From contig MENF01000066.1 of assembly GCA_001769035.1 (NCBI GenBank), positions 2,389 through 66,388 on the forward strand: a stretch of DNA of 64,000 bases, in the 5' to 3' direction. Within the stretch, counting starts at the first letter, position 1. Each line of letters begins with the position of its first letter. Shown piece after piece: positions 3,341 through 53,167 of the stretch. The notes under the pieces were generated by a model that ran no database searches, had not been told where the DNA came from, and worked only from the letters and a program-made list of their open reading frames with translations. Position numbers and translations under genes: made by a program. The DNA comes from Bacteroidetes bacterium GWA2_32_17. GTDB lineage: Bacteria > Bacteroidota > Bacteroidia > Bacteroidales > GWA2-32-17.

Positions 3341-4130
3341 AAACTTTAATTTAGGTAACTCATGTTACGCAAGTAAAAAATTTGTCTCGCAAAGCCGTTT
3401 ACCCCGTTAGATAATTGCTCTTTATATAGTTCGCTCTTTTTTTAACTATTTAACGGGGCAGGGTTCACAAAGTTAAAAAGTGGCTAAATAGTCGTCCCTT
3501 AAAAACCCTCTTTAGAAATTTTGGTCGTTATTAATTTCAATTGAGATTTTTTTTATTTTTCTTTTTTCACCACCAAAAAAGAAACAAAAAACCCTCCACG
3601 AAGTCCAACTCCAATTTTTTAACTAATTCAAATTTAGGAGTTTGATAGATGAAATAGCTTTGTTGTAACACCGTGAATAATTTGCCCAAAAATTGTAGTT
3701 CGCACAGTTACTCACATCTTTTTTTTATTTTTTTATGGTGTTCGTGAGGGCTAAAGCCGTTCGTGGACAACCCACCGCACTTGCTTCGATTAAAACTAAT
3801 AGGGAAAATCAATCTTATTACAATAAATATATTATGAAAATATGCAAGGTTTTAACTGTTCACCACGTGGGATAACTCCGTTGAACAATGGAGCGAAAAT
3901 AAAAAACAAATATCCAACGTGGTAAAATATTATTTCTTGCAATTTATTTTATTATTTTATAACATTATTTAACTGGATATTAATTTGTTGAATACTTTTT
4001 AAGTGACGACTATTTAAAAACTTAAATTTAGGTAACTCATGTTACGCAAGTAAAAAATTTGTCTCGCAAAGCGATGCACTGAGCTTATCGAAGTGCTACC
4101 AAGTTCACAAAGTTAAAAAGTGGCTAAATA
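3341..4130. repeat. Long direct duplication (3341-3490 and ~4018-4130) flanking the MITE
   Basis: TTTAGGTAACTCATGTTACGCAAGTAAAAAATTTGTCTCGCAAAGC...GTTCACAAAGTTAAAAAGTGGCTAAATA occurs twice with different central inserts. Confidence 0.9.
3486..4015. mobile_element. Non-coding MITE-like element (~530 bp)
   Basis: Terminal inverted repeats AAATAGTCGTCCCTTAAAAA / TTTTTAAGTGACGACTATTT (19/20); flanked by a long direct duplication. Confidence 0.65.
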
Positions 4131-4748: not shown

Positions 4749-5462
4749 CTACATTTTTAATTTTAAAATATCAAATTTGAGTAAATCAAAAACTATGAAA
4801 CTGTCTGATTTATAAATATCGAGTATTAACTGTATAGTAGCATTTGCCATATAAACACCCAGTATTCCAGGAACCACACCTAATACACCACTCTCATTGC
4901 ATCCGGGAGCATCTTCGGAATCAGGTGGTTCACCGTAAACATCTCTTAAATTTTTATTGTTTTTATAATTAAATACCGCAAGCTGGGCTTCAAATTTGTA
5001 AATGCTTCCGAACACTAAGGGTTTATTTAATTCTGCACAAATATCATTTACTAAAAACCGGGTTGGAAAATTATCGGAACCATCAACAATAATATCAAAA
5101 CGGGAAATGATTTCTTTACCGTTTTTTTTATTCAGAATTTCATTAAAAACAATAAATGAAACATTAGGATTCTGTGATTTTAATTTACCTGCTGCTATTT
5201 CCACTTTTGGTTTCCCGATATCATCGGTTGAATAAAGAATCTGACGATTTAAATTATGGAGTTCTACCGTGTCAAAATCAATAATCCCAATTGTGCCAAC
5301 TCCTGCAGAACATAGATATTGTAAAGCCGGACAACCTAATCCGCCGGCACCAACAACGAGCACTTTAGCATTTTTTAATTTCTCCTGACCTTTTTTTCCT
5401 ACCTCAGTCAGTATTAATTGATGCCTGTAACGTAATAACTCCTCTTTAGTAAAATCATTCAT
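4749..5462 (-). CDS. thiF: ThiF/MoeB family adenylyltransferase
   Basis: VGAGGLG, DFDTVELHNLNRQ, DGSDNFPTR; last gene of the thi operon. Confidence 0.85.
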   Translation of the reverse strand: MNDFTKEELLRYRHQLILTEVGKKGQEKLKNAKVLVVGAGGLGCPALQYLCSAGVGTIGIIDFDTVELHNLNRQILYSTDDIGKPKVEIAAGKLKSQNPNVSFIVFNEILNKKNGKEIISRFDIIVDGSDNFPTRFLVNDICAELNKPLVFGSIYKFEAQLAVFNYKNNKNLRDVYGEPPDSEDAPGCNESGVLGVVPGILGVYMANATIQLILDIYKSDSFIVFDLLKFDILKLKM

Positions 5463-6594
5463 ATTTTAAAAATGAATTATCCCAGTCTTTCCATACAGGT
5501 TCGTAATCATTTGAAGCTATTATCTCTGCTATCTGACCTGCATTTCGTTCATCTGCAATTTCAAACTGTTCCAGCGATTTTTGGTTGCCTGAATATCCAC
5601 CTGGATTAGTTTTTGAGCCTGCACTCATACTTGTAACACCTAATTTTATAATATTATTTCTAAAAGTTTCTGACTCACGTGTCGAAACAGATAATTCCAC
5701 ATCTTCGTTAAATAATCGGTAAGCACAAATTAATTGTACAAGTTCCTTGTCAGAGATTGATGATTCTGAAGCTCCGAATATTTTTTTATCTTGGTCATTA
5801 ACCTTATATGGCCTGATTCGTGGAAAAGAAATCGAATATTTTGTTTGCCAGTATTTTTTTTGCAGGTATTCTAAATGTAAAGCGCATAAACAGGAATCTG
5901 TCCGCCAGTCTTCCAGTCCTAATAATATTCCTAATCCAATTTTATGTATTCCCGCGCGCCCTATTCTGTCAGGTGTTTCAAGGCGAAAATAAAAATCAGA
6001 TTTTTTTCCCCTGGGATGATATACTTTATATTTCTCTTTGTTATATGTCTCCTGATATACAAAAACAGCATAAACACCTGCACGGTTTAATTCTTCGTAT
6101 TCTGTCTGTAAAAGAGGGAGTACTTCAATGGAAGTATTTGCAAAACTTGATTTTATCAGATTGACGGATTGAACTAAATATTCCAGGTTTACAACTTGTC
6201 GTGCCTCACCTGTTACAAGTAAAATATGATCAAATCCCTGTTTTTTAATTTCTGAAATTTCTTTTAAAATTTCATCTGTATTAAGCGTTTTACGTTCTAT
6301 TTTATTGTTAAAATTAAAACCGCAATAGGTGCAGTAATTATTACATTCATTGCTTAAATACAAAGGAACATATAATTGAATTGTTTTGCCAAAACGCTTT
6401 TGTGTTAATTGTTGACTTATTTGTGCCATTTGTTCCAGATAAGGAACGGCAGCAGGAGAGATTAATGCTTTAAAGTCTTCTATTGTCCTGTTATTCGAAG
6501 ACAATGCATTCTCAACATCACTGGAAGATTTATTTAAAATGGACTCTTTTATTTTGTTCCAATCCTGTAAATCATATATTTTTTGAAAACTCAT
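5455..6594 (-). CDS. thiH: 2-iminoacetate synthase (radical SAM)
   Basis: YLSNECNNYCTYCGF, YQETY, SAGSKTNPGGY, PVWKDWD. Confidence 0.95.
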   Translation of the reverse strand: MSFQKIYDLQDWNKIKESILNKSSSDVENALSSNNRTIEDFKALISPAAVPYLEQMAQISQQLTQKRFGKTIQLYVPLYLSNECNNYCTYCGFNFNNKIERKTLNTDEILKEISEIKKQGFDHILLVTGEARQVVNLEYLVQSVNLIKSSFANTSIEVLPLLQTEYEELNRAGVYAVFVYQETYNKEKYKVYHPRGKKSDFYFRLETPDRIGRAGIHKIGLGILLGLEDWRTDSCLCALHLEYLQKKYWQTKYSISFPRIRPYKVNDQDKKIFGASESSISDKELVQLICAYRLFNEDVELSVSTRESETFRNNIIKLGVTSMSAGSKTNPGGYSGNQKSLEQFEIADERNAGQIAEIIASNDYEPVWKDWDNSFLKYE

Positions 6595-6615: not shown

Positions 6616-7401
6616 CTATTCTAAAAATGCAGTAAGGGGACTACTGGCTTCAGCATTATTTACTTTATTAGCCAGCTTTGCTTCAAAAGCTATTCTGCCG
6701 GCTTCTACTGCTAATTTAAAGGCATAAGCCATGTCAACCGGATGTTGGGCTATTGCAATGGCTGTATTTACCAGAACTGCATCAGCACCAATTTCCATGG
6801 CTTTTGCGGCATCGGAGGGCGCACCTATTCCTGCATCAATAACAACGGGTACATTACTTTGCTCAATAATAATTCTTAAAAAGTCAATTGTTTTTAAGCC
6901 CTTGTTACTTCCTATCGGTGAACCCAGCGGCATTACAGCCGATGTTCCTGCATCTTCAAGTCGTTTACACAACACCGGATCTGCATGTATATAAGGCATA
7001 ACAATAAAGCCAAGCCGGGATAATTCTTCTGTGGCTATTAATGTTTCAATTGGGTCAGGCATTAAATATTTTGGGTCTGGATGAATTTCTAATTTTATCC
7101 AGTTTGTTTCTAATGCTTCCCGGGCAAGTTTAGCGGCAAAAATTGCTTCTTTAGCGTTTCTTGCACCCGAAGTATTGGGTAATAAATTAATATTGGTATG
7201 TTGAAGATGTTCGAGAATATCATCATGAATTTTATTGTCTGTTGAATTCTTTGAAGTATTTATTCGTTTTAGTGCCACAGTTACTAATTCGGTACCGGAT
7301 GAAACGACAGCATCAGCCATTAGTTTTGAAGAACCAAATTTTCCTGTCCCTAAAAATAACCTCGACTTAAATTCTTTACCCCCTATTATTAATCTTTTCA
7401 T
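6616..7401 (-). CDS. thiG: Thiazole synthase
   Basis: [36 protein letters not shown]. Confidence 0.97.
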
Positions 7402-7826
7402 GTGTTTATATTTTAGTTATTGTCTCATTATTAATTACTTATATTTTTTAGATACACGACCTGACAGGAACTTCGTAACCTGTCAGGATGTGTAACAATT
7501 ATTCGTTAATCCTTATTCGATATTTTTTTAAATACAATCATTCCCTTGTGTGTCTTTATTTAGTCATGGATGTTTCATCTGTTTATATTTTTTAGTTTAC
7601 TGATACTCAATTTATTATATTTTTCAGATTGATGTAGATTGAAGAAGATTGATAGGATTGATGAAGACGTTCTCCAATCTTGTCTTCTCAATCTATTCAA
7701 TCTTGTTTTTTCAATCCTTTCAATCCTTCTTCTCAATCTTGTTTTCTCAATCTTTTTCAATCTCATCACTTAACCTCAACCGCTAATATAATCATTCCCT
7801 TGTGTGTCTTTATTTAGTCGTGGATG
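7402..7826 (-). mobile_element. Two tandem copies (7402-7572, 7579-7826) of an element flanked by ATGAAA direct repeats
   Basis: TTTCAT at 7396-7401, 7573-7578 and 7827-7832; shared ends CATCCAYGACTAAATAAAGACACACAAGGGAATGA...AAATATAAACAS on the minus strand. Confidence 0.7.
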
Positions 7827-8463
7827 TTTCATATAACAATGAATTTAATTTTTCTATTGTTTCTTTTTTATCTTTTCCTAATGTTATAAGACCTGATATG
7901 GCAACACCATAAACACCTGTTTTTAAAATGTCATCAATATCACCATGTTGAATGCCTCCAATTGCATAGACAGGTACATTTCTTTGTTCTATTGTAAGTG
8001 TGTTCATTATTCTGTTAATACCATCCAATCCTAAAACCGGGCTTAATTTTTCTTTGGTTGTAGTAAACCTGTATGGTCCTAAACCAATATAATTGCAGCC
8101 CTCGTTAATTCTTGTTAGTACATCGGTTATAGTATTGGCTGTACCACCGATTATTTTATCTTCACCTAAAATTTCTCTGGCCGTTGTGATTGGCATGTCC
8201 TTTAATCCAAGATGGACACCATGAATATCAGCTATTTTTGCTATGTCAACATTATCATTAATTATTAATGTGGAATTATATAATGAACATAGTTTTTTTA
8301 TTTTTTCAGTTAAATTTATTAACTGTTTTTTTTCACAATTTTTAAAACGTAATTGTATCCATTTACAGCCGGCATCAAGAGTACTGTTAATATTATTAAA
8401 TTGCTCTTCAGGTGTTGAGCCCTGGGAAATATACTGGAGTTTGCTATACATAATGATAACCAA
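7810..8463 (-). CDS. thiE: Thiamine-phosphate synthase
   Basis: WIQLRFK, IINDN, GVHLG, GPYRFTTTK, AIGGI; real start may be MYSKL at ~8451. Confidence 0.93.
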   Translation of the reverse strand: MVIIMYSKLQYISQGSTPEEQFNNINSTLDAGCKWIQLRFKNCEKKQLINLTEKIKKLCSLYNSTLIINDNVDIAKIADIHGVHLGLKDMPITTAREILGEDKIIGGTANTITDVLTRINEGCNYIGLGPYRFTTTKEKLSPVLGLDGINRIMNTLTIEQRNVPVYAIGGIQHGDIDDILKTGVYGVAISGLITLGKDKKETIEKLNSLLYETSTTK

Positions 8464-9196
8464 TTAATGAACGGTTTGACGATAAAAATGTCTCAACGTA
8501 GTTTTTTGCATTATAACAGGAAGTCAATAAATCAAATCCCAAAGCAAGATTTGCTGCAATAGCTGAAGATAACACACAACCCGAACCATGTTTGGGAAAA
8601 ATATTTTCTTTTGCAGGTAAAATCTTCTCTACATTGTTTTTTATATATAAATAATCTATTCCAGGTTCCATTTCATTATGCCCGCCCTTTAAAAGGACAT
8701 TACAATACCTTGATAATTCCTTTGAAGCTTTTTTGGGATCATTATTATTTGTTATAAATATTATTTCTTCAACATTAGGACTTATCAGAAAAATATTTTT
8801 AATAACAACTAATAAGTCTTTATTTTGAAATTTATTATGAAATTCAAAACCGGCACTGGCTTTAATAATGGGATCCCATATTATAATCGGGTTTGAAATA
8901 GAAGAAGTCAGGTAATTTATTATTTTTTCAAGCGATTCTAAATCTTTAATCAATCCGATTTTGATAATTGAAAATTCAAATCTTTTTCTTAACAATGAAA
9001 CCTGTTTTATTATATCATCTGCATTAATCCATTGGATACTGTTAAATTCAATATCGTTCTGAAAAGTAACGGAACTAATGGCTGAAACTCCGTAAACCCG
9101 GTGTCTTTCAAAAGTTTTAATGTCAGCAAGTATGCCTGCTCCGCCACTGGGGTCAAAGCCTGCAATGCTTAACACACAGTTTCTTTTTTCATCCAT
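8444..9196 (-). CDS. thiD: Hydroxymethylpyrimidine/phosphomethylpyrimidine kinase
   Basis: SIAGFDPSGGAGILADIKT, LLKGGH, KHGSGC. Confidence 0.93.
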   Translation of the reverse strand: MDEKRNCVLSIAGFDPSGGAGILADIKTFERHRVYGVSAISSVTFQNDIEFNSIQWINADDIIKQVSLLRKRFEFSIIKIGLIKDLESLEKIINYLTSSISNPIIIWDPIIKASAGFEFHNKFQNKDLLVVIKNIFLISPNVEEIIFITNNNDPKKASKELSRYCNVLLKGGHNEMEPGIDYLYIKNNVEKILPAKENIFPKHGSGCVLSSAIAANLALGFDLLTSCYNAKNYVETFLSSNRSLIGYHYV

Positions 9197-9756
9197 CTTT
9201 TTTTTATTTTATTGAATTTTTCGATAGGATTACTGTTTTGCCATATTGCCCCCAATAAAGCTATTCCGGGAAATCCTGTATCTTTTAAAATATCAATTTT
9301 GTTCTCATCAATTCCACCCAGGGCAAAGATTCTTTTTTCGGTAAATAAATCCCGATAATTTTTGAGATTTTGAAGATCAAAATTGCTTTTATAATTCTGC
9401 TTTGAGATACTATTGAAAACAGGGCTTAAAAACCCGTAATCAAATTTCTTATCGGATTCCATAATTTCATTAACTGAATGAAATGAAATGCTTAGAGGTT
9501 TATTGTTGCCTTTATCATTATAGGTCACCGGGACATGGATTCCTTTCAGATGATACTCTTCTGCCAGATGATAATGAGAATGTAAGACTATCCTTTTGTG
9601 ATAATTGTTATGAATTGTTTCAATAAATTTTTTGATATCTTCTTTTGTATATTGCTTTTTTCTGAGATGAAGTATCTCCAGGCCATCATAAAATAACTGA
9701 TGGATGAGGTTGACTTCATCTTTAATAAAAACCGGATCAGTGATAACAATAATCAT
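9169..9756 (-). CDS. ThiE/TenI-like protein (second ThiE-fold protein)
   Basis: LHLRK, SFHS, FLSPVFNSISK, ALGGI; position in the thi operon. Confidence 0.85.
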   Translation of the reverse strand: MIIVITDPVFIKDEVNLIHQLFYDGLEILHLRKKQYTKEDIKKFIETIHNNYHKRIVLHSHYHLAEEYHLKGIHVPVTYNDKGNNKPLSISFHSVNEIMESDKKFDYGFLSPVFNSISKQNYKSNFDLQNLKNYRDLFTEKRIFALGGIDENKIDILKDTGFPGIALLGAIWQNSNPIEKFNKIKKRWMKKETVC

Positions 9757-9757
9757 C

Positions 9758-11635
<1,878 letters not shown>

Positions 11636-11681
11636 TTATTTTATTTTGTGGATTTTGCATGATTATTTCATGTAAAATGTA

Positions 11682-11885
11682 CTATCCTCCTTGTGTAGCT
11701 TTAATGATTATAACTTCATCGTTTTGTTTAAGGAAATATTCCTGCCAGTATTCTTTTTTTATTACCTGGTTATTTACCGCAATGGCTATTCCCTTCTGTT
11801 TTTCATTTATTATTTCGTCAACTAATAATTGAATTGAACAGTTTTCAGGGAATTTTTCAATCTGGTTATTTACCTTTATCTCCAT
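11682..11885 (-). CDS. thiS: Sulfur carrier protein
   Basis: 67 aa, IAIAVNN, C-terminal QGG. Confidence 0.95.
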   Translation of the reverse strand: MEIKVNNQIEKFPENCSIQLLVDEIINEKQKGIAIAVNNQVIKKEYWQEYFLKQNDEVIIIKATQGG

Positions 11886-11970
11886 AATTAATTTAATTTA
11901 AACATCATGAACAAAAAAGATTTTATTTTTTAGAATGATTTATAAATGAGTACGGTATAAAAATCTTTTA

Positions 11971-12043
11971 TTGCCACGAATTACACGAATTAACGCAGAT
12001 AAATGATTTTTAAATCTGTGGAAATCAGCGTAATCTGTGGCAA
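11971..12043. repeat. REP-like imperfect palindrome in the thi leader
   Basis: TTGCCACGAATTACACGAATTAACGCAGAT...ATCTGTGGAAATCAGCGTAATCTGTGGCAA. Confidence 0.7.
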
Positions 12044-12171
12044 CATTTTTTTATTTTTTCAATTTTATTATTAAATTATACCTTTTTAGACTGGACTCAT
12101 AAATTCTTTAAATAAAAATCAAAATTAAACCGAAGAAATATTTTTTCATGGTTAATAATTAAAAATTTAAG

Positions 12172-12264
12172 TCAATGGAGGTCTTTTGGTTTTCCGGCTC
12201 GGCATTACCCGTCCCGGTCCTAAGGGTATATTCTCAGCCCGTTATATTAAGGCACCCCATTGAG
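12172..12264 (-). ncRNA. TPP riboswitch (variant P4/P5)
   Basis: Minus strand GGGGTGCC..GGGCTGAGAATATACCCTTAGGACC..GGGTAATGCC; CAATGGGG can pair with CTCCATTG; lies upstream of thiS. Confidence 0.88.
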
Positions 12265-12392
12265 CTATCGTTGCAAAGATAAAACCTATTTTATAAATAA
12301 AAAAATATTTTTTTATTTATTTAGATATAACAGGTTTTAAAACCTGTTAATTCTTGTAAATATTTTTTAATTTTGTAAAAAGTATTTCAGAT

Positions 12393-12893
12393 ATGAAAAG
12401 AATAACTTTAGTAACCATACTGATATTGTTTTCGTTATTGGCAAATAGCCAAGAAAAAAAGCTGATTTATATTCCAACTTTAAATGGAATGAAACAAATT
12501 GACGAAGCTGTAACAAAAGCTAAAGATGATAATAAAAATGTATTAGTTCAGGTTGGTGGAAACTGGTGCCCATGGTGTTTTAAATTTAATAATTTTTGTA
12601 AAGATGTTCCTCAAATTGATTCCATAATAAAATCGAGCTACGTTCTTATACATTTGAATTACAGTAAAGAAAACAGAAATTATGATGCTTTGGAAAGATT
12701 AGGATTTCCACAAAGGTTTGGTTTTCCTGTGCTCGTTGTTTTAAATTCAAAAGGTGAAAGATTGCATACTCAAGATAGTGGGTTGCTCGAAAAAGAAAAA
12801 GGCTACGATACTTTAAAAGTAGCAACCTTTTTAAATAACTGGACACCTCAAATATTTAATAAAGAGAGGTATATTGTTAATGAAAATAAGTAA
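12393..12893 (+). CDS. Exported thioredoxin-family protein
   Basis: Signal peptide, GGNWCPWC, FGFPVLVVL. Confidence 0.88.
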   Translation: MKRITLVTILILFSLLANSQEKKLIYIPTLNGMKQIDEAVTKAKDDNKNVLVQVGGNWCPWCFKFNNFCKDVPQIDSIIKSSYVLIHLNYSKENRNYDALERLGFPQRFGFPVLVVLNSKGERLHTQDSGLLEKEKGYDTLKVATFLNNWTPQIFNKERYIVNENK

Positions 12894-13213
12894 CGACAGT
12901 CAGTCCAAAAACCCATTTTTCTATAAATTTTAATCAAATATTAAGTGATTAAACGAAATAAAAAATAATCAACAACTTAAAGTGTTTTATAATTTGTTAA
13001 AAAGATGGGGCGTATTCATATTATTGATAACAGATATTTGTTATATTAATGTGCATATTATATTCACAATTGGTCTGTGTGCCACAGACCAAGGATGTAA
13101 AGATATTGCACATTATTAGAAAAAAGGTTTTAATATAAGACAATAACAGCCAATTTGGGTTTTATTTTTAACTGTATTCCACCTGCCAAGTGTATAATTT
13201 GTATATACGGGAC

Positions 13214-13245
13214 TTCTAAAATCCGATAGCTATCGGATTTTAGAA
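13214..13245. repeat. Perfect 32-bp palindrome (ATCCGATAGCTATCGGAT core), possibly acting as a terminator
   Basis: TTCTAAAATCCGATAGCTATCGGATTTTAGAA; the core recurs at ~38963. Confidence 0.8.
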
Positions 13246-13260
13246 CCCCTCTATAGTAAA

Positions 13261-14760
13261 TTATTGTTTCACAAATTTTTTAATTTGTGAAACATTTTTT
13301 GAATATATTTTTAACAAATAAATTCCTTTCGGTAAATTTGAAATATCAATGTAAGATTTTTTCCCAATTTCAGAGCAATGTATCTTTTGATTTAAAACAT
13401 TATAAATTTCGACTGTAAATAAACCCGTAGCATTTGTTATTTCAATGTTTAAATTATTTACAGAAGGATTTGGAAAAAGATTTATACTTATCTCATCAAC
13501 AACTGTTTTGGATTTGATATTTGTCGAAAATAATTCACAAAAATTAAATACTTGAGGGGCAAATTGATAAGCTGGGTTTCCATAATGGCTCACTGCTATT
13601 TTAAATACACAATCTTCGGGTATTACCTGAATAAATTGAAGGTTTATATTCTGAACAGATTGTGTTTTCATTATGTTCCAGTTATCAGATGAACCGATGT
13701 TTTGTCCGTTGTAATTTGTGTGAATAACATTACTCACATTCAAATATCGTGAACAATAAATTTGGGCATTGTTTCTTTTCACCATGTCATTGGCAGCATA
13801 TAAATTATCGCCATCAATACTATCGGTATAATTATTATATCGAAAAGTTACATAAGGTTGTTGTGGAGCCAGTTCTGCCACCATGGCAATCAGACTATCG
13901 TAACCCGCTGTTGATGGAGCCAGCGAACATACAATAAAACCGCTTGCATACCCATTGGTATTAGAAGATAATGCGTCGCGAATATCATTAACATTGTGCA
14001 AACCATCGTTATTAAAATCAACTTTTTCTAATCCTTTTCGTATGGCAAGCGTTACTGGTTCGTAGCCTTTGTTTACTAAAGCGGTGAAGCCGTTAACTGT
14101 ATTTAAAAAAGCAGTAACCCCATGAATGTTAAATGCCTGTGAAGCAGCCATCTGTCCGGCAGTACCTGTTAAAATCCATGGTTGTTCGTTAGTTTCAGAG
14201 GGGACATGAATAATTACCACTTGATTGTTGGTAATATTGGTATCTAATGGGCTTGCATCAAGATGATGGGAAATAACTGACTTACCGTTTAAATCTGTTC
14301 CCAAAGTAGCATCGCCCCAATCCATGAGACTGGAACAATTCTGAATAATTTCTTTTTTGGTAATAAATCCCGAAAGGTCAGTAATAAAATTTACAACAAA
14401 TAAATCAAGGTACGAAATTCCGGCAGTATCAATACCTGCATTTGCCATTCCATCTAACATAGCCTTTGCTTCAGTTACATAAATGGTGTCTATAGAAAAA
14501 TTATTTTGATTCCCTATAATTGATTTTGCCAACGGAAGCAGACCTCCAAAGTTAGGAAGAATGTAATTATTATATACAGAAAATATTTTCTGACTACATA
14601 AATATCCATAAGCAAAACCACGTTGGTAATGGGTTCCCCACACTTTTACAACTCTGATATTACCTGTGTCGGAAACTAATTCACCATTTACCGGTTGTGC
14701 ATACACTATACTTAAAGATGATGCAATAACAAAAACAACGATTACAAATATTTTTTTCAT
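13261..14760 (-). CDS. C45/NAAA-like Ntn hydrolase with T9SS C-terminal domain
   Basis: WGTHYQRGFAYGYL, NCSS putative nucleophile, FPNP...GIYLLK...KKFVKQ CTD. Confidence 0.75.
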   Translation of the reverse strand: MKKIFVIVVFVIASSLSIVYAQPVNGELVSDTGNIRVVKVWGTHYQRGFAYGYLCSQKIFSVYNNYILPNFGGLLPLAKSIIGNQNNFSIDTIYVTEAKAMLDGMANAGIDTAGISYLDLFVVNFITDLSGFITKKEIIQNCSSLMDWGDATLGTDLNGKSVISHHLDASPLDTNITNNQVVIIHVPSETNEQPWILTGTAGQMAASQAFNIHGVTAFLNTVNGFTALVNKGYEPVTLAIRKGLEKVDFNNDGLHNVNDIRDALSSNTNGYASGFIVCSLAPSTAGYDSLIAMVAELAPQQPYVTFRYNNYTDSIDGDNLYAANDMVKRNNAQIYCSRYLNVSNVIHTNYNGQNIGSSDNWNIMKTQSVQNINLQFIQVIPEDCVFKIAVSHYGNPAYQFAPQVFNFCELFSTNIKSKTVVDEISINLFPNPSVNNLNIEITNATGLFTVEIYNVLNQKIHCSEIGKKSYIDISNLPKGIYLLKIYSKNVSQIKKFVKQ

Positions 14761-15020
14761 GTGTTTATATTTTTTAGTTTATTGATACTCTATTTTTTAT
14801 ATTTTTCAGATTGATGTAGATTGAAGAAGATTGATAAGATTGATGAAGACGTTCTTCAATCTTGTCTTCTCAATCTATTCAATCTTGTTTTCTCAATCTA
14901 TTCAATCTTGTTTTCTCAATCTATTCAATCTTGTTTTCTCAATCTTCTCAATCGTACTAATAATCATTCCCTTTCCTATAAATCGGAACAAGTCGTGTGT
15001 TTTAAAATTAATCATGGATG
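14761..15020 (-). mobile_element. Third copy of the ATGAAA-flanked element, with TCAATCT repeats
   Basis: TTTCAT at 14755-14760 and 15021-15026; strongly similar to 7579-7826. Confidence 0.7.
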
Positions 15021-15025
15021 TTTCA

Positions 15026-15991
15026 TTAAACAAACCCTGTTTTTTTTGAAAATGAAATTATTTTATTTGCAAGAACTTCGGCTAATTTTATTTTCGATTC
15101 GTGAGTCCAGCCTGCAGAGTGTGGAGTAATAATTACTTTAGGGTTGTTAAGCAAATAATAAAATGTAGCTGGCATATTGTTTAAATCCATTTTGTCAAAT
15201 GAAGATTCCTCATACTCAATAACATCGAGCCCGGCACCTTTAATTTTTCCTGTGTCTATTGCATTTAAAAGACTTTCTGTTTCAACTACCAGACCACGAG
15301 AAGTGTTTATTAGGTAAATGTTTTTTTTGAATTTATTGATGAATTTACTGTTAACCATGTACTTTGTTTCTTCTGTTAAAGGAACATGCAGGCTAATAAT
15401 GTCAGAAAGCATGAAGATATCGTCTAATGCAACTTCTTTTGTATATCCATCGCTGTAATTTGTTTTATATTTATCGTACGAAATTACATTTGTTTCGAAT
15501 CCTGAAAGTTTATGTGCAAAAGCACTTCCCATGTTTCCGTATCCAATTATTCCAATAGTTTTTCCTTTAATTTCTGTTCCTCTGTTTTCTTCGCGTAACC
15601 ATCTCCCATTTTTTATTTCAAAATTCGATTTATTTATATTTGTTAAAAGCGATAACAACAATCCCACAGCTTGTTCGCCAACTGCATCGCGACTGCCTTC
15701 GGGAGAGTTTACACATTCAATATTTTTAAATTTAGCAAATTCGGTATCAATACTTTCCAATCCAGAACCAACTCTGCCTATGAATTTAAGTTTTGTTGCT
15801 TTCGATAAAATTTCTTTGTCAAGTGTTAAGCGACTTCTTAAAATAATACCAGTATAATTGCCAATAGTATTTAGTAATTTGTTATAATTAATTTCGGTAT
15901 CAATTTCACAATTAAAGCCACTTGCTTCTAACATTTGTTTTAACAATGGATGCGTTGAATCTATAAAAAGTATTTTGTTCATTGTTTTCAA
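15026..15991 (-). CDS. D-isomer-specific 2-hydroxyacid dehydrogenase (SerA-like)
   Basis: GIIGYGNMG, SLHVPLT, INTSRG, GAGLDV, TPH. Confidence 0.9.
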   Translation of the reverse strand: MKTMNKILFIDSTHPLLKQMLEASGFNCEIDTEINYNKLLNTIGNYTGIILRSRLTLDKEILSKATKLKFIGRVGSGLESIDTEFAKFKNIECVNSPEGSRDAVGEQAVGLLLSLLTNINKSNFEIKNGRWLREENRGTEIKGKTIGIIGYGNMGSAFAHKLSGFETNVISYDKYKTNYSDGYTKEVALDDIFMLSDIISLHVPLTEETKYMVNSKFINKFKKNIYLINTSRGLVVETESLLNAIDTGKIKGAGLDVIEYEESSFDKMDLNNMPATFYYLLNNPKVIITPHSAGWTHESKIKLAEVLANKIISFSKKTGFV

Positions 15992-17614: not shown

Positions 17615-17639
17615 TTACAAAACTACATCATTTTATTTT

Positions 17640-17835
17640 TAAAATTTGATTTTTGTGTTTTGGGATTTTAAATTTGAAATTTGGAATTTGGCACTTGGAA
17701 TTTGGCACTGGCTTGGAGCGGTCAGATGGGTTAGGAAATAGACACACAATTTACTACGTACCCATCAGACCGCTTGGAGTTAGTTTGGTATTTGAAATTT
17801 GGAATTTTGCACTTGGAATTTGAGACTTGGAATTT
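17640..17835. repeat. TTGGAAT-type heptamer tract with a nested palindrome
   Basis: Repeated TTGGAAT/TTGAAAT; AGCGGTCAGATGGGT (17717) / ACCCATCAGACCGCT (17760). Confidence 0.75.
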
Positions 17836-17913
17836 ATTTGTTATAAGTAAGGGTAAAATTATTTTTAAGTGTATTAAAAAAAGAATAATTTTGTACTAAC
17901 TAACAATTTAGAT

Positions 17914-19233
17914 ATGAGAAGAAATATATATTTATTGTTTTTTATTTTCATTTCAATTACTTGTTCAGCCCAGTCAAACTATATGGGGAAATTAGGGTAT
18001 GGTGTATCACCTTTGGGGCACCCCGATTTTTCGCAGTTTGGAGCTTTTTTACAGGAAGTTTCAAATACCTGCAACGGTGGAGTTGTTTATGCCAACGGAA
18101 GTTGGAGTGATACAATAACTAAAAGTGGAAATATTCCAAATTTAAACAACATTATTTGCCAGTTGCAACCCTTACCTTATAACTATGTTGATATGGTAAA
18201 TTGTGCATGGGCAACATATCCTCAACTACATTTGGCTGTACCATCAAACCCTACTAATAACTGGACAAATGCTGAAATGAAAAATTTATTTCTTCAAATG
18301 CTTATTAATACTGCCGACTCGCTTCATCCAGCTTATGTTTTTATTGGCAATGAAATAAGCATGTACTGGGAGCAGGATTCGTTGGATTATTTGAATTGGG
18401 TTTCATTTTATAATCAAGCTTATGATTCTATAAAAGTTCATTCGCCAAATTCAAAAGTAGGAACTACTTTTAATTTTGAACATCTTTCGGGAAATGGAAT
18501 TTTAACAGGTTGGAGTACACCATATTGGAATGCCTTTGATATTTTTGATACAAGCAAATTAGATATTATTGGTTTAACAGTTTATCCTTTTTTTAATTAC
18601 CAACATGCTAATGATGTACCTTTAAATTATCTTGACCCGATTTTTTCAAGGATTGGTAATAAGCCAGTTGTTATTGCGGAAACAGGTTGGCCTGGCGATT
18701 CTTTAATTGGCTCATGGTATGCTTCTTCTTTGGAACAAGTTAATTATGTAAATAAAATTTTTAATATAATTTCCGGCAAAAATGTTGAAGTTGTAAACTG
18801 GTTATTTTTAAATTATTGGATGGAACCATCTGACTCCGCTGTTGTAAAACTTTTTAAAAGCGTAGCTTTACGAGATTCTCTCGGAAATGACAGACCGGCA
18901 CTTGCAGAATGGTTATTACATTGTAATAACAATATAGTTAAAGAAAATAATAATTCAGAAGAAATAAGTATTTACCCTAATCCATTCAGCAACTCAACCA
19001 CTTTAGAAATCATTAATAACAAAACACAAAATAATAATTATGATATAACAATATTTGACGTCTTTGGCAAAACTGTTTACCAATCAACCATCAACAAATC
19101 CACTCCCCTCTCCTTTGGAGAGGGGTCGGGGGTGAGGTCAATAATAAATCTTAATTTGCCAAATGGAATTTATTTTTTACAGGTAAAAAGAAATAATTTT
19201 TTACAAACTAAAAAGCTGGAGGTAATAAAATGA
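17914..19233 (+). CDS. Clan GH-A-like glycoside hydrolase domain + T9SS CTD
   Basis: IGNEI and IAETGWP glutamate motifs; YPNP...KKLEVIK CTD. Confidence 0.7.
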   Translation: MRRNIYLLFFIFISITCSAQSNYMGKLGYGVSPLGHPDFSQFGAFLQEVSNTCNGGVVYANGSWSDTITKSGNIPNLNNIICQLQPLPYNYVDMVNCAWATYPQLHLAVPSNPTNNWTNAEMKNLFLQMLINTADSLHPAYVFIGNEISMYWEQDSLDYLNWVSFYNQAYDSIKVHSPNSKVGTTFNFEHLSGNGILTGWSTPYWNAFDIFDTSKLDIIGLTVYPFFNYQHANDVPLNYLDPIFSRIGNKPVVIAETGWPGDSLIGSWYASSLEQVNYVNKIFNIISGKNVEVVNWLFLNYWMEPSDSAVVKLFKSVALRDSLGNDRPALAEWLLHCNNNIVKENNNSEEISIYPNPFSNSTTLEIINNKTQNNNYDITIFDVFGKTVYQSTINKSTPLSFGEGSGVRSIINLNLPNGIYFLQVKRNNFLQTKKLEVIK

Positions 19234-22648: not shown

Positions 22649-23832
22649 AAAACAAATTCTTTTTTACGGCATTATTCTTTGCAATATTTTGGACGGAAAG
22701 TTTTGCACAATGGATTTCTCAAACTTCCGGGACAATTCAGAATTTAAACTCAATATTTGCGACTACTAATTCCTCAGTTTTTACAGTTGGAACATCGGGA
22801 ACTGGAAGAAAAACATCTGATGGTGGTGCAATTTGGAACACTATGAGTTTAGGTGTTACAACCACGCAATATAGTTTACGATTTATAAATTCAACATCGG
22901 GATTTACAGCGGGTGGCTTTCAGGATATTTTGCAAACATCTAATAGTGGTAGCTCATGGACAAACATAGGTGGTGGAATGACTGATCTGTACGATTGTTA
23001 TTTTACATCTTTCTCTTCAGGATGGGTTGTTGGTGATATTGAAGTAGGATATGGGTTTCTCTACAATCCTTTCACTTTTAATTTAATTCAGATATCCGCC
23101 AATGCGAACAAAGTGTTACGAGGAATTTATTTTGCAAACAGTACAATAGGTTGGGTACTAGGTGATGGTGGATTAATAATTAAAACCATTAATAGCGGCA
23201 CAAATTGGACGCAACAAACATCCGGTACAACAAATCAATTAAATAAAATAATGTTCATAGATGCAAATAATGGAATCGTTGTTGGTAATACCGGAACCAT
23301 TTTGAAAACAATTAACGGAGGAACAAACTGGACTTTATCAACCAGCGGTACAACACTAAACTTAAATGCACTTTATTATGCAGATGCATTAAATATCTGG
23401 ACTTGTGGTGATAACGGAATAATACTTAAAAGTATAGACGGAGGGCTAACATGGTTTATTGAAACATCAGGAACAATAGAAAATCTAAACGCAATTCACG
23501 GTATAGGAATAACAGATATTTGGGCTTGCGGAAATAATGGGACAATTATTTATCATTCAGGAACTACTTCTGTTTTTGAAAATCAATTACAAACAAATAT
23601 TTCTGTTTACCCCAATCCCACAAACGGAGATTTGCGAATTACAATTAATGATAAATGGTTAAAAAATGCAGAACTGAAGATTTTTGATGCCTTCGGCAAA
23701 AATGTTTACCAATCAAAAATCCTTAATCTTAAATCCTTAATCCTAAATCTTAATTTGCCCAACGGAATTTATTTTTTACAAGTAAAAGGCAATAATTTTT
23801 TACAAACTAAAAAACTGGAGGTAATAAAATGA
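22645..23832 (+). CDS. YCF48/BNR beta-propeller protein + T9SS CTD
   Basis: Repeated G.ILKTxxGGxxW units. Confidence 0.85.
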   Translation: MKNKFFFTALFFAIFWTESFAQWISQTSGTIQNLNSIFATTNSSVFTVGTSGTGRKTSDGGAIWNTMSLGVTTTQYSLRFINSTSGFTAGGFQDILQTSNSGSSWTNIGGGMTDLYDCYFTSFSSGWVVGDIEVGYGFLYNPFTFNLIQISANANKVLRGIYFANSTIGWVLGDGGLIIKTINSGTNWTQQTSGTTNQLNKIMFIDANNGIVVGNTGTILKTINGGTNWTLSTSGTTLNLNALYYADALNIWTCGDNGIILKSIDGGLTWFIETSGTIENLNAIHGIGITDIWACGNNGTIIYHSGTTSVFENQLQTNISVYPNPTNGDLRITINDKWLKNAELKIFDAFGKNVYQSKILNLKSLILNLNLPNGIYFLQVKGNNFLQTKKLEVIK

Positions 23833-25322: not shown

Positions 25323-25345
25323 ACTAAAAAATTAGAAATAATTAA

Positions 25346-44714: not shown

Positions 44715-46841
44715 ATGAAAACTTTAAATAATATTTTTCAATTTAATAAAATAAAAAAAACTTTTTTATTTTCTCTGCTATTTGTTTTTTTGTTTGTAAA
44801 TGGTTTTTCTCAAACTCATTTATGTTCAGAATATGAAGCAGATAAAAAAGCAGAATTAGAAAACCCCGATTTCTTAAAAGCCAAAACTGAACTTGATAAT
44901 TTCACAAATCAATATGAGCAAAGCAATCAAAAATCAGAAGTAATATATATTATTCCTGTTGTATTTCATGTTTTACACAATTATGGTTCAGAAAACATCT
45001 CAAAAGCACAAATTTTAGATGCTGTTAGAATTATTAATGAGGACTTTAATAAATTAAATGCCGACACTTCTCAAATAATTCCAGAATTTCAGGGAATTGC
45101 TGCAAATTCTCATATTGAATTTCGTTTGGCTCAAATTGACCCTTATGGAAATTGTACCGATGGTATTGTTCGAACTGTAACAAGCGAAACTAATAATGCA
45201 GGCGATGATACAAAACTACTCTCACCATCATGGAACAGAACAAAATATTTAAATATTTGGACAGCAGCAAACCTCGAATCTGGTGCTGCAGGTTATTCTT
45301 TTTACCCATCAAGTGTTTCTGGTGCATGGGGTGTAAGTATTGATGGAGTTATGATTCTTGATTCTTATGTTGGAAGTATTGGAACAGGTAATTATACTTA
45401 TGCCCGTGCTTTATCGCACGAAATTGGGCATTATCTGAATTTAGCACATACATGGGGAAATAGCAACACACCTGGTCTTCTATCAAATTGTAGTATTGAT
45501 GACGGGGTAAGTGATACACCAAACACAATTGGACATACAAGTTGCAATTTATATTCTAATACTTGCGGTTTTCTCGACAATGTTCAAAACTATATGGATT
45601 ATTCGTACTGCGATAGAATGTTTACCGAAGGACAAAAAACAAGGATGAGAGCAGCTTTAAATAGCTCTGTTAGTGGCAGAAACAACCTTTGGACTGCTTC
45701 AAATTTAATAGCTACCGGTACAAATGATGGTTACATTGCTCAAGTTTGTGCTCCTATTCCTGATTTTATTTATTATAATTCATTCGGATGTAATAGTATG
45801 TCAGTTCAATATACTGATTTAACGTGGAATGTTGATTCCGGATATACTATTTTATGGTCATTCCCAGGTGGAACTCCATCTACATCAAATATTTCTAACC
45901 CTAATGTTTCGTATTCAAATACAGGTGATTATGGTTCGACATTAACTGTTTCAAATATAAGTGGAAGTAATCAGATTACTAAATCTAACATAATTCATAT
46001 TCAAGATCCTACTACTGGCGAAGGCATTCCATGGGTCGAAAGTTTTGAAAATAGTTCTTTCCCAATCAATTTAACCGACTCGTCAAAAAATTGGTTAATA
46101 TTAGGGAATAGCAATTTTAATTGGTCGCAAGTTAATGTTGCATACAATGGTTTATCATCTGTAAAAGTACCAAATGAAAACAATACTTTAAATCAAACTT
46201 CAGAGTTATATTCTCCAAATATTATTACATCGTCAAACAGCCATAATAATTTCTTTACTTTTAGGGTAGCTTATGCTCAAAAATTATCAACAGATGTTGA
46301 CAAATTACAGGTTTATATTTCATCTAATTGTGGTTTAACTTGGTATCCACGATTCACAAAATCTGGTGCAGAACTCGCAACTAATGGAGGAACGCTTGTA
46401 AGCTCTTTTAGCCCTGATACTTCGCAATGGAGAAAAGAAACAATTAGTCTTGGCTTATATTCAAATAAACCTTATATTAGAGTAAAGTTTCTTGTTACTT
46501 CTGGCAATGGAAATAGCATATATTTAGATGATATTAATTTAGACCAATTAACCAACATAGATAATTTGCCACTTTCTGTTTCAAATAATTTAAATATTTT
46601 TCCAAACCCTGTAAATAAGGAATCAATATTAGTTTTTGATTTAAGCAAGACATCTGAAGTTGAACTTTCACTTTCAAATGTTTTAGGACAAAAGTTAACT
46701 TTTTACAAAAATAATTTTATTGCTGGTCCTTATGATTTGAATGTAAATGAACTTTTTAAAACAGATTTGCAACAAGGAATATATTTTCTTTCGGTTACCA
46801 TTAATGGCATATCGGAAACATTAAAACTGGTAAAGGAATAA
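44715..46841 (+). CDS. M43 zinc metalloprotease + PKD + T9SS CTD
   Basis: IPVVFHV, HEIGHYLNLAHTW, NYMDY, MFTEGQ. Confidence 0.92.
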   Translation: MKTLNNIFQFNKIKKTFLFSLLFVFLFVNGFSQTHLCSEYEADKKAELENPDFLKAKTELDNFTNQYEQSNQKSEVIYIIPVVFHVLHNYGSENISKAQILDAVRIINEDFNKLNADTSQIIPEFQGIAANSHIEFRLAQIDPYGNCTDGIVRTVTSETNNAGDDTKLLSPSWNRTKYLNIWTAANLESGAAGYSFYPSSVSGAWGVSIDGVMILDSYVGSIGTGNYTYARALSHEIGHYLNLAHTWGNSNTPGLLSNCSIDDGVSDTPNTIGHTSCNLYSNTCGFLDNVQNYMDYSYCDRMFTEGQKTRMRAALNSSVSGRNNLWTASNLIATGTNDGYIAQVCAPIPDFIYYNSFGCNSMSVQYTDLTWNVDSGYTILWSFPGGTPSTSNISNPNVSYSNTGDYGSTLTVSNISGSNQITKSNIIHIQDPTTGEGIPWVESFENSSFPINLTDSSKNWLILGNSNFNWSQVNVAYNGLSSVKVPNENNTLNQTSELYSPNIITSSNSHNNFFTFRVAYAQKLSTDVDKLQVYISSNCGLTWYPRFTKSGAELATNGGTLVSSFSPDTSQWRKETISLGLYSNKPYIRVKFLVTSGNGNSIYLDDINLDQLTNIDNLPLSVSNNLNIFPNPVNKESILVFDLSKTSEVELSLSNVLGQKLTFYKNNFIAGPYDLNVNELFKTDLQQGIYFLSVTINGISETLKLVKE

Positions 46842-46980
46842 TTATATTTAAAAAAATATCGAACAAGGATTAATGAATAATTGTTACACAACCTGACAGG
46901 TTACGAAGTTCCTGTCAGGTTGTGTATTTAAGAAATATAAGTAATTATAATGAAACTTAACTGAAATATAACAAATGAAA
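46840..46980 (+). repeat. Fourth, partial copy of the ATGAAA-associated element
   Basis: Reverse complement of 7402-7535, including the ACCTGACAGG palindrome; ends AAATATAACAA-ATGAAA. Confidence 0.75.
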
Positions 46981-53150: not shown

Positions 53151-53167
53151 ATAATAAATTAACAATA

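Follow-up and report, generated by a model that had tools for sequence, protein, structure and literature searches.

The window analysed here, a 64-kb stretch of contig MENF01000066.1 from Bacteroidetes bacterium GWA2_32_17, carries three short non-coding repeats on its minus strand (copies A, B and C; Table 1). Copies A and B lie head to tail between thiE and thiG, in a neighbourhood where Pfam confirms thiE, thiG, thiD, thiC, thiH and thiF, while copy C separates a 2-hydroxyacid dehydrogenase gene from an ORF (13261–14760) whose sole Pfam match is a T9SS sorting domain; the 'C45' label attached to this ORF in an earlier note, made from the sequence alone, was not reproduced. Each copy has the hexamer ATGAAA on both sides, begins with CATCCA and ends in AAATATAAACAS. 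Every coordinate given in the earlier note for these three copies, described there as bounded by ATGAAA direct repeats, proved correct, as did its account of the interiors, with a palindrome in copy B and a repeat hairpin in copies A and C. The start of the element encodes a four-codon mini-ORF (ATG AAA CAT CCA TGA), and the predicted folds consist of one central hairpin followed by an unpaired 3′ part.

Table 1. Elements, flanking hexamers and variable cargo in the window
Feature	Position	Strand	Description
5′ hexamer of copy A	7827..7832	-	ATGAAA, inside the thiE 3′ end
Copy A body	7579..7826	-	Left-end module, then the 23-nt minisatellite hairpin and an A-rich right end ...AAATATAAACAG
Hexamer common to copies A and B	7573..7578	-	ATGAAA, head-to-tail junction
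Copy B body	7402..7572	-	Left-end module, CCTGACAGG/CCTGTCAGG palindrome (about 7453–7494), A-rich right end ...AAATATAAACAC
3′ hexamer of copy B	7396..7401	-	ATGAAA = thiG start codon and Lys codon
5′ hexamer of copy C	15021..15026	-	ATGAAA, sharing bases with the stop codon TAA of the 2-hydroxyacid dehydrogenase gene (TAATG)
Copy C body	14761..15020	-	Left-end module carrying an additional hairpin insert (TTCCGAT..GGAA), then the 23-nt minisatellite hairpin and an A-rich right end
3′ hexamer of copy C	14755..14760	-	ATGAAA = start of the T9SS-tail protein gene (MKKIFVIVVF...)
Copy D, partial	46832..46980	+	B-type interior and degraded right end finishing in ATGAAA, without a left-end module
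23-nt tandem repeats in copy A	7675..7753	.	Variable cargo
23-nt tandem repeats in copy C	14857..14958	.	Variable cargo

A fourth, partial copy had also been proposed, ending in ATGAAA just before the S8 gene. Copy D is indeed partial (46832–46947 on the plus strand is 92 % complementary to 7432–7547) and does end in the hexamer (46975–46980); this hexamer is not the start of the S8 peptidase gene, which begins 36 nt further downstream, at 47017.

The ends of the three full copies are unlikely to recur by chance. The 19-nt left end ATGAAACATCCAYGAYTAA occurs exactly three times, against 0.17 occurrences expected in shuffles (0/100 shuffles reach three), and the right end AAAATATAAACASATGAAA three times against 0.64 (2/100 reach three). 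HMMs built from the copies of other genomes only matched the window at exactly these three left ends (E value about 1e-10) and recovered the right ends of copies A–C at E values of 0.002–0.15. The termini, CATCCA... and ...AAACAS, are unrelated, so the window copies have no terminal inverted repeats (TIRs). The 64-kb window contains no transposase gene, and Rfam covariance models returned no match in it at the gathering threshold, nor in nine loci at E values of up to 1–10. Terminator prediction found none, and sigma-70-type promoters were not above shuffles, with a tool that does not cover Bacteroidota-type promoters.

The minisatellite of copies A and C, made of 23-nt units containing AGATTGA that fold into a long hairpin, prompted a comparison with BrickBuilt of Porphyromonas gingivalis, likewise an intergenic Bacteroidota element, in which a leader and a tail module enclose a 23-nt minisatellite. 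BrickBuilt is a MITE with IS5-type TIRs (GAGACCTTTGCA / TGCAAAGGTCTC), variable flanking repeats and a host range of P. gingivalis and P. gulae (PMC4596501). We rejected identity with it, since these TIRs, as given there, are absent from the ends of copies A, B and C, and the host range does not fit.

The thiE–thiG junction indicates that the elements have been inserted. The window's thiE reads through into copy A and now ends in ...LYETSTTK*, so that its actual C-terminus, ETSTTK*, is encoded by the element. Removing both elements together with one hexamer predicts instead the tail EKINNRG*, which is what the window's thiG start yields when read in the thiE frame. The C-termini of four ThiE orthologues (YEKVSNRG in P0011 and P0012, HEKINNCR in P0013 and HEKINNSR in P0014) match this predicted tail, so that relatives have an empty site, which bears out the earlier proposal that removal restores a thiE/thiG overlap. 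A second empty site was found for a sister family, where locus L036 has a single ATGAAA exactly at the site of the 131-nt sister element of L064. Among the scanned loci, only three, all from Aequorivita, were orthologous to one another, and all were filled; none of the scanned loci had useful flanks in common with the window.

A genome collection was scanned with a pattern in which part of the left end was fixed and ATGAAA was left out, which returned 105 matches in about 30 Bacteroidota assemblies. Including the window's three copies, 86/108 matches are preceded by the exact hexamer; 20 of the other 22 have one or two mismatches to it or are shifted by a single base, and two are chance hits. 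In the 68 copies that do not follow another copy, the A of ATG is precisely where conservation sets in. On the 3′ side, the hexamer is ATGAAA in 62 of the 73 complete copies, with a free sixth base, although these 3′ statistics are partly by construction, as the 3′-end finder demanded ATGAA plus the A-rich module. Interiors, judged by eye from listings, are similar within one genome and different between genomes. No DNA match to compact elements was obtained in plasmids and phages.

It had been suggested that the element targets start codons. Among the 73 complete copies, however, only 32 adjoin an ORF of 60 codons or more; another 32 are followed by a short intergenic ORF, seven adjoin another element, and two run off a contig. 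The target is the ATGAAA hexamer, not start codons as such. The hexamer opens 15 of the 45 listed ORFs of the window. In 37 cases the next gene downstream points the same way as the element, in nine it points the other way, and in a further nine there is none within 600 nt; 36/104 copies follow the right end of another copy, and 29/80 loci have a contig end within 400 nt. Locus L078 was considered as an intragenic insertion and rejected, since the 40-codon ORF that follows looks like a small gene ahead of the next gene, which we take to be MazF-like.

The position upstream of genes, the shared orientation, the predicted unpaired A-rich 3′ part and the four-codon mini-ORF would also suit a cis-regulatory leader RNA or a duplicated, immobile intergenic spacer. 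This reading is largely refuted, and we give it almost no weight: the neighbouring genes are functionally unrelated, the copies form tandem arrays and break contigs, relatives have empty sites, Rfam has no match, and a relative of the elements carries a transposase.

This relative, L055, occupies the whole of a 1504-nt contig that starts with ATGAAA-CATCCATGATTAA... and stops with ...AAATTATAAACAG-ATGAAA, and it supplies the longer, transposase-bearing copy for which the earlier note had suggested a search. Its protein matches PF01548 (E value 1.6e-28; DEDD RuvC-like) and PF02371 (E value 1.2e-16), contains the G--P----SG motif, is named 'IS110 family RNA-guided transposase' at NCBI and matches the IS621 transposase 8WT6 (E value 2.6e-11). 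The left ends of L055 and copies A–C align with 32 invariant columns over about 46 nt, and the right ends over about 20 nt, including TATAAACAS-ATGAAA. L055 is the sole full-length copy seen; its genome is that of a flavobacterium, outside the lineage of the window, and an A9 run interrupts the transposase frame. Plasmid matches to the transposase were all below 60 % identity.

As L055 combines the same two ends with an IS110-family transposase, the window copies are best read as non-autonomous mini-IS. Having no ORF, they could belong to the IS110/IS1111 family only as derivatives; what they retain is roughly 46 nt at the left end and roughly 20 nt at the right, around a variable interior. 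We therefore interpret them as natural mini-IS, i.e. internally deleted, transposase-less derivatives of an IS110-family element widespread in Bacteroidota, with a probability of roughly 0.75. The earlier view of non-autonomous mobile elements that sit at ATGAAA in a single orientation is supported. Laboratory mini-IS with only a 29–84 bp left end and a 16–71 bp right end are moved in trans by transposase and seekRNA (PMC11187229).

Alternatively, the likeness to L055 may be secondary, an unrelated IS110 having nested in, or captured, an older small element with another mobilising enzyme. There is only one full-length example, and the small elements are far more numerous, also in genomes that yielded no full-length copy. 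Against this, the L055 contig starts and stops exactly at hexamers, and four contig-end fragments from the same genome (L019, L023, L074 and L077) share an identical left end with different flanks; these copies break the assembly right after that left end, suggesting that the repeating unit there starts at the hexamer. As the absence of TIRs, the shared core and the single orientation independently fit the small elements as IS110-family members, we regard secondary capture as unlikely.

Of 211 flank ORFs of at least 150 aa around the copies, 178 were scanned, 33 having been dropped by eye (mostly overlapping opposite-strand ORFs, plus the orthologous L026 and the chance hit L030). The only transposases among the 178 were those of L055 (IS110) and L027 (IS5-type DDE), and 15 ORFs downstream of long copies, inspected by eye for an internal transposase, all read as ordinary host proteins. 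The L027 gene is the single DDE gene near a copy and an isolated case, which bears on the idea of a DDE-type MITE producing a 5–6 bp target duplication at a strongly preferred site. A MITE would be expected to be short, non-coding, flanked by direct repeats, present in many copies and disruptive to assemblies, as these elements are; yet their termini are not inverted repeats, and the flanking repeat is fixed in sequence, with a sixth base that differs systematically between the two sides. A DDE origin is accordingly very unlikely.

The same sixth base bears on the earlier claim that insertion duplicates the start codon. Where the 3′ hexamer is ATGAAT (five copies), the 5′ hexamer always has A in sixth position, and the sister family has ATGAAC on the 5′ side only, indicating that one of the two hexamers is part of the element. 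In published work, likewise, one copy of any apparent duplication is assigned to the IS (PMC11187229). Rather than a staggered-cut duplication, the flanking repeat is thus probably a short core common to an IS110-family donor and its target, as judged from the sequences. Studied IS110-family members recognise about 11–14 nt (PMC11208160), whereas the conserved target here comprises only 5–6 nt. The canonical IS1111 subterminal inverted repeats (11–13 bp, with extensions of 7 bp on the left and 3 bp on the right) are absent.

Under the IS110 interpretation, and by analogy with the established behaviour of the IS110/IS1111 family, a full-length copy elsewhere in the genome would supply the recombinase (DEDD/RuvC-like) and a bridge or seeker guide RNA. 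The element would excise as a circle with the junction ...AAACAS-ATGAAA-CATCCA..., and the circle would then recombine, always in the same orientation, with an ATGAA(A) core in the genome, leaving the core on both sides of the inserted element. The A/B head-to-tail junction (7573–7591) has the same sequence as this expected circle junction, an identity that by itself says nothing on circles. With the core on both sides, a gene opening with ATG AAA would keep an intact start, now behind the unstructured A-rich right end, a putative initiation region, and where the preceding gene ends across the old start (ATGA, TAATG), its stop codon would survive as well. Intragenic insertions would presumably be purged by selection, leaving those located at a gene start, in a 5′ region or at the end of an older copy. 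As to the guide RNA, the 183-nt 3′ non-coding region of L055 carries, in sense, AGATGAAA and ATGAAAC, and lacks any complementary stretch of 6 nt or longer. Guides annealing to the bottom strand on the left side of the core would have this appearance (PMC11208160).

Like IS110/IS1111 elements such as IS621 (bridge RNA) or ISEc11 and ISEc21 (seekRNA), L055 has PF01548, PF02371 and a long non-coding end, and the elements as a whole lack TIRs, are site- and orientation-specific and have a short core on both sides. Unlike those members, the window copies have neither a transposase nor a long non-coding region of the L055 type, and the target is ATGAA(A) alone. Translation-start signals would have a precedent as IS110-family targets in the mycobacterial IS900, IS901 and IS902, described as landing, in a single orientation, between ribosome-binding site and start codon of their target genes; these are, however, autonomous, have a longer consensus target and belong to a different phylum. 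A non-autonomous IS110-family piece at extra sites is also known, namely ssr9, the transposase-less module of ISPpu9 in Pseudomonas putida, which uses an IS110-family transposase (PMC12288879). The ssr9 module is a defined small-RNA gene that targets REP sequences and has three additional copies within a single species, whereas the present elements number tens of copies per assembly across a phylum, have variable cargo and target ATGAAA. The IS110-type kind is already known; the ATGAAA target and the miniature derivatives were not found, judging by titles and abstracts, in the literature searched, which lay outside subscription journals and ISfinder. There, the literal 13-nt left-end motif gave no match, and the 20 listed of 22 matches for four 12-nt motifs look unrelated by title.

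IS110-family recombinases are under development as programmable genome-editing tools, which lends interest to natural variation in target and donor. In this clade the core or target appears to be very short, ATGAA(A), and coincides with the commonest start of Bacteroidota genes, and its abundant miniature derivatives inside operons would offer a natural example of sparing the host. The elements are also a likely cause of fragmented Bacteroidota metagenome assemblies, given the proportion of loci at contig ends, and they lead to mis-annotated start codons and to changed C-termini, ThiE here being one case.

Finally, part of the family shows an internal feature that the window copies lack. A 12-nt inverted copy of the left end lies inside 37/73 copies, 27–33 nt from the right end, but neither L055 nor the window copies have it, so the earlier statement that the element has no clear TIRs stands for the window, but half of the family has this internal inverted copy. 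In 26 type-I copies, an internal CAT-NNN covaries with the NNN-ATG of the 3′ junction, with 91 % of cells paired and 18 double-change cells against 6.6 ± 1.6 in shuffles (0/500 reach 18). One alternative is a single-strand, non-autonomous HUH/Y1 element (IS200/IS605-like), inserting 3′ of TTCAT on the antisense strand and using an internal guide that pairs with the cleavage sites, much as IS608 has internal sequence complementary to its ends. The type-I covariation would suit such an element, as would the lack of TIRs and of a variable duplication, the strict orientation, the 5-nt repeat and an invariant A.C mismatch in the long stem (sense) that would be a G.T wobble on the other strand; with palindrome-associated IS200/IS605 elements and REP/RAYT, the present family shares the absence of TIRs, a short fixed target and a single orientation. 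Unlike in those systems, the ends are linked to no Y1 enzyme and have no paired subterminal hairpins. Moreover, the sole transposase found with these ends is of the IS110 family; the 178 flank ORFs scanned include no Y1 or TnpB gene, there is no conserved hairpin near either end, and the guide-like segment is missing from half of the copies, L055 and the window copies, making an HUH mechanism highly improbable.

Within the IS110 interpretation, the type-I members, of about 125 nt, might be minimal guide-carrying elements rather than mere deletion remnants, consisting of a left end, a compact bridge- or seeker-like RNA and a right end, with the recombinase as their sole requirement in trans and the donor-binding part covarying with the element's own 3′ terminal bases. 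Such an element would be a portable 5′ leader across the phylum, slipping between translationally coupled genes and breaking neither; we offer this as a speculative and rather doubtful extension. The covariation of the internal segment with the 3′ end, in half of the copies, provides a testable handle on donor-end recognition in this clade.

Three short non-coding copies of the element (A, B and C) lie on the minus strand of the window, each between ATGAAA hexamers. Copies A and B stand head to tail in a thiamine operon (identified by gene calls and Pfam) and separate thiE from thiG, the sole operon neighbours that do not overlap or nearly touch. ATGAAA occurs 5′ of copy A, at the A/B junction and 3′ of copy B, where it forms the start of thiG. 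For copy C, the TAA stop of the dehydrogenase gene overlaps the first hexamer (TAATG) and the second hexamer is the start of the T9SS gene. The left and right ends are each present three times in the window, against expectations of 0.17 and 0.64, respectively, and HMMs made solely from other genomes' copies picked out copies A–C and no others, bearing out the earlier note's description and coordinates of three ATGAAA-bounded copies with a CATCCA start and an A-rich end. The interior of copy B is a palindrome, and those of copies A and C consist of a 23-nt minisatellite predicted to fold into a long hairpin. A fourth, partial copy (D) had also been proposed; its B-type interior and terminal ATGAAA are present, but it is without the left end and stops 36 nt upstream of the S8 peptidase gene. 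No transposase or recombinase gene was found in the 64-kb window by Pfam or by a search of the window. The operon also holds two TMP-TENI (thiE-type) genes, of which the thiE-like one scores much weaker.

Positions of the elements, operon genes and other features discussed, in window coordinates
Feature	Position	Strand	Remarks
thiC	9758-11623	-	
thiE-like gene	9169-9756	-	TMP-TENI, E 4.8e-17
thiD	8444-9196	-	
thiE	7810-8463	-	TMP-TENI, E 1.8e-47
Copy A	7826..7579	-	starts CATCCAYGAC, ends AAATATAAACAS
Copy B	7572..7402	-	starts CATCCAYGAC, ends AAATATAAACAS
thiG	6616-7401	-	
thiH	5455-6594	-	
thiF	4749-5462	-	
Copy C	15020..14761	-	between 2-hydroxyacid dehydrogenase gene and T9SS-sorting-domain protein gene
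Copy D, partial	46832-46980	+	B-type interior, without left end
TPP riboswitch match	12174-12269	-	sub-threshold
Hairpin repeat	~11975-12045		rich in CACAGATT
Intergenic short-direct-repeat arrays	17631-17849, 28552-28757, 32303-32398		upstream of genes
T9SS gene array	17914-28429	+	six genes
Two small repeat families	37606-37705, 38989-39053, 39199-39226; 19082-19123, 20980-21021, 25174-25215, 53153-53194		

When copies A and B and one hexamer were deleted in silico, thiE read on through the start of thiG. The thiG start in the thiE frame is EKINNRG*, while the actual ThiE ends in LNSLLYETSTTK*, its last six residues replaced by five others; this altered C-terminus is the host cost seen. Among 15 sequences fetched of the 120 ThiE relatives listed, those at 62–65 % identity end in ...LYEKVSNRG (P0011, P0012), ...LHEKINNCR (P0013) and ...LHEKINNSR (P0014), and P0016 ends in ...INEQFNYIR. 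The overlap that the earlier note expected on removal of the copies is thus matched by the tails of P0011–P0014, which also supply the empty thiE–thiG sites it had sought in relatives, as a protein footprint alone. P0013 is named as from the same assembly as two loci carrying the element (L033 and L075), so a genome with the element elsewhere has an empty thiE–thiG site. Of the close relatives (94–95 % identity), P0002 and P0003 end in ETSTTI, the element-encoded tail, and P0004–P0010 stop at ...LNSLL. A second filled/empty pair is provided by L036, which reads ...GACTG-ATGAAA-TTGCAAG, and L064, where a 131-nt sister element is flanked by ATGAAC and ATGAAA; the two are copies of a larger repeat bounded by TIRs. 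That repeat (L036:1800-2190, and L064 on the minus strand) has inverted AAATAGGGCCTGCTGAAAAAG termini, carries one element inside and lies in different flanks in two assemblies.

Outside the window, a genome-collection scan with the left-end pattern CATCCAYGAYTAAN{6,7}ACACAC, from which ATGAAA was left out on purpose, returned 105 matches at 102 loci in ~30 assemblies (counted from the accession prefixes of the 80 loci with titles listed); copy numbers are lower bounds, as the pattern fixes 19 left-end positions. Carriers include many Bacteroidales MAGs, Flavobacteriaceae (Aequorivita, Sinomicrobium, Galbibacter, Polaribacter, Gelidibacter), Saprospiraceae and Sphingobacteriia. Adding the window's three copies, an exact ATGAAA lies directly 5′ of 86 of the 108 matches; in 20 more the hexamer carries one or two mismatches or is shifted by one base, most changes destroying the ATG. 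L030 and L096 were rejected as chance matches, having no other element feature. Nothing upstream of the hexamer is conserved, and conservation starts at the A of its ATG (68 copies without a preceding copy). The right end was found in 73 of the 108 matches, the others running off the contig, having no right end within 900 nt or, in L055, having it 1.5 kb away. Its consensus is AAAWTWTAAACAS, followed by ATGAAA (n=62), ATGAAT (n=5), ATGAAC (n=5) or ATGAAG (n=1), figures that are partly by construction since the 3′-end finder demanded ATGAA and an A-rich module. The shortest complete elements span 78–94 nt. Interiors, from listings read by eye, are similar inside one assembly and unlike between assemblies. 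Another copy's right end directly precedes 36 of 104 copies, and a contig end lies within 400 nt at 29 of 80 loci.

Some copies showed further similarities between assemblies. L075:1928-2031 is 99 % identical to window 7730-7832 over 104 nt, and the ThiE of the assembly named for L075 shares only 65 % identity with that of the window; this reflects either recent element movement between lineages or a small mis-binned contig. Outside the elements, L033:2227-2290 matches window 3398-3458 at 86 %, representing another repeat common to a related assembly. A single 88–89-nt copy occupies the same site in three assemblies, two of them named Aequorivita (L025, L026, L084), and is antisense to both neighbouring genes, showing that not every copy is young or gene-oriented.

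The earlier note took start codons to be the target, a view that the family does not favour, as only 32 of the 73 complete copies abut a long ORF, i.e. have a 3′ hexamer that opens an ORF of 60 codons or more. In another 32 of the 73 a short ORF follows the 3′ hexamer and the real gene lies 10–400 nt further on, seven adjoin another element and two run off the contig. The 32 long ORFs begin at real gene starts, since in none of them does an upstream ORF run in frame into the 5′ hexamer and several downstream proteins have signal-peptide-like starts (read by eye). At L013, L024 and L032, and at copy C in the window, the stop codon of the preceding gene falls within or abuts the 5′ hexamer (ATGA, ATAA, TAATG), the signature of a junction at which stop and start once overlapped. 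Element and downstream neighbour point the same way in 37 cases and opposite ways in 9; in a further 9 there is no such neighbour within 600 nt. The window holds 128 ATGAAA hexamers, 41 with at least 60 open codons behind them, and ATGAAA starts 15 of its 45 listed ORFs. In our reading, the target is the hexamer itself, and insertions would survive where they fall at a gene start, in a 5′ region or at the end of an earlier copy.

In all five copies with a 3′ ATGAAT, the 5′ hexamer ends in A, and a sister family (L008, L059, L064) has ATGAAC on the 5′ side and, where visible (L064), ATGAAA on the 3′ side. The sixth base is therefore contributed by the element at the left junction and by the target at the right one; the shared unit is ATGAA, one copy of which is the element's own. 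The sister family (also L016) has the same architecture, with the left end ATGAAC-CGAGCCATGAYAATAAC..., and often has a main-family right-end hexamer as its insertion site.

Of the 211 flank ORFs with 150 aa or more, 178 were scanned against Pfam; the other 33, mostly overlapping opposite-strand ORFs, were dropped by eye. The flanks are ordinary unrelated host genes except for an IS5-type DDE gene (L027) and an IS110-family gene (L055). The latter locus answers the earlier note's search for a longer, transposase-bearing copy: it occupies an entire 1504-nt contig of Sinomicrobium pectinilyticum, is the only full-length copy found and comes from another class than the window, and both of its ends align with the corresponding ends of copies A–C. 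Read on the minus strand, it opens with A-ATGAAA-CATCCATGATTAAATTTTAAACACACAGGGGAATGATTATTTTGG, has a 319-codon ORF (PF01548 and PF02371) beginning after 66 nt and a 183-nt non-coding stretch 3′ of the protein, and closes with ...AACTAAATTATAAACAG-ATGAAA-A. An A9 run interrupts this frame, and the remaining protein is encoded in another; the break may be a conserved slippage site and not an error, because the relatives listed (P0121–P0240) form two common length classes, ~318–319 aa and ~413–416 aa. The protein is named 'IS110 family RNA-guided transposase' by NCBI and matches the IS621 transposase structure 8WT6 (E 2.6e-11). All 120 listed relatives, the query itself aside, share 71–81 % identity; most lie on 1–2.5 kb contigs, and the few named organisms are Bacteroidota. 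Plasmid-borne relatives are all below 60 % identity and belong to other phyla. In the same assembly, four other contigs break off 48–54 nt into an identical left end, with differing flanks.

IS110/IS1111 elements are described as without terminal inverted repeats, excising scarlessly as double-stranded circles and recombining in one orientation at a short core common to donor and target, with a guide RNA from the long non-coding end; one copy of their apparent duplications is to be assigned to the IS (PMC11187229, PMC11208160). Laboratory mini-IS of a 29–84 bp left end and a 16–71 bp right end move with transposase and RNA in trans (PMC11187229), and ISPpu9 carries a hitch-hiking transposase-less module (PMC12288879). 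The window elements are most likely natural mini-IS, with a left end of ~46 nt and a right end of 20 nt. Ends common with L055, a core on both sides, a single orientation and empty sites were all observed; the enzyme and RNA would be supplied in trans, with a circle intermediate and RNA guidance. In most copies the 5′ ATG opens only ATG AAA CAT CCA TGA, the hexamer's ATGA is a stop in a second frame, the 3′ 30–60 nt are A/U-rich and unpaired in every predicted fold, and a terminator search predicted none. These features suggest that the operon would be read through and the downstream gene keep its start, in an A/U-rich unpaired leader of the kind that Bacteroidota use.

Of the 73 complete copies, 37 contain the left end again in inverted orientation (TGGATGTTCCAT, at most 2 mismatches), 27–33 nt before the 3′ hexamer in 33 of the 37; searches of the window copies and L055 found none. 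In an alignment of 26 of 36 such copies of at most 165 nt (10, much shorter or with extra inserts, were left out), the base triplet following this segment covaries with the triplet preceding the 3′ ATG (GAG/CTC, GTG/CAC, CTG/CAG). Paired cells make up 91 %, against 13–47 % in slid controls. Both sides have changed in 18 cells; shuffles gave 6.6 ± 1.6, and none of 500 reached 18. The three states are common to related copies, leaving few independent events, perhaps two. Pairing is partly broken in L024 and L039. Together with the inverted left end, the covariation indicates that the segment is the complement of the right end–ATGAAA–left end junction; its one invariant sense-strand mismatch (A.C) would be a G.T wobble on the other strand. 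It could be a donor-binding guide, an end-recognition structure or a translational hairpin. The 3′ non-coding region of L055 contains AGATGAAA and ATGAAAC in the sense direction and lacks any complementary match of 6 nt or longer.

An IS110-family element with a hitch-hiking derivative is a known kind of element, and the full-length element is quite possibly already an IS entry. A Bacteroidota-wide family of miniature derivatives, a 5–6-nt core coinciding with ATG AAA, and frequent residence at gene starts and inside operons were not found in the literature searched, which did not extend to ISfinder and subscription journals. In mycobacteria, elements of the IS900 type target the gap between ribosome-binding site and start codon. 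The terms 'MITE' and 'non-autonomous' have 0 occurrences each in the two mechanism papers, PMC11187229 and PMC11208160.

The window contains further repeats. Heptamer repeats upstream of start codons have been described in Bacteroidetes (PMC4679880). The intergenic arrays comprise 7- to 14-nt units (e.g. TTGGAATTTGG and AACAATAAACATAG), and similar arrays are cargo of L066, L073 and L091. The TPP riboswitch match scores 31.8 bits (E 3.7e-4), below the gathering score of 54.3, and is followed ~290 nt downstream by a likely thiS and then by thiC; the hairpin repeat between riboswitch and thiS resembles the interiors of L043 and L054. The T9SS-sorted protein genes have four consecutive stop/start-overlap junctions, and four of the six share a repeated leader ending GGAGGTAATAAA-ATG, with an SD-like motif that is unusual for this phylum. 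Finally, the two small repeat families are ATTGCCACGACCTTTAGGTCGTGG palindromes and CCTCTCCTTTGGAGAGG hairpins downstream of genes.
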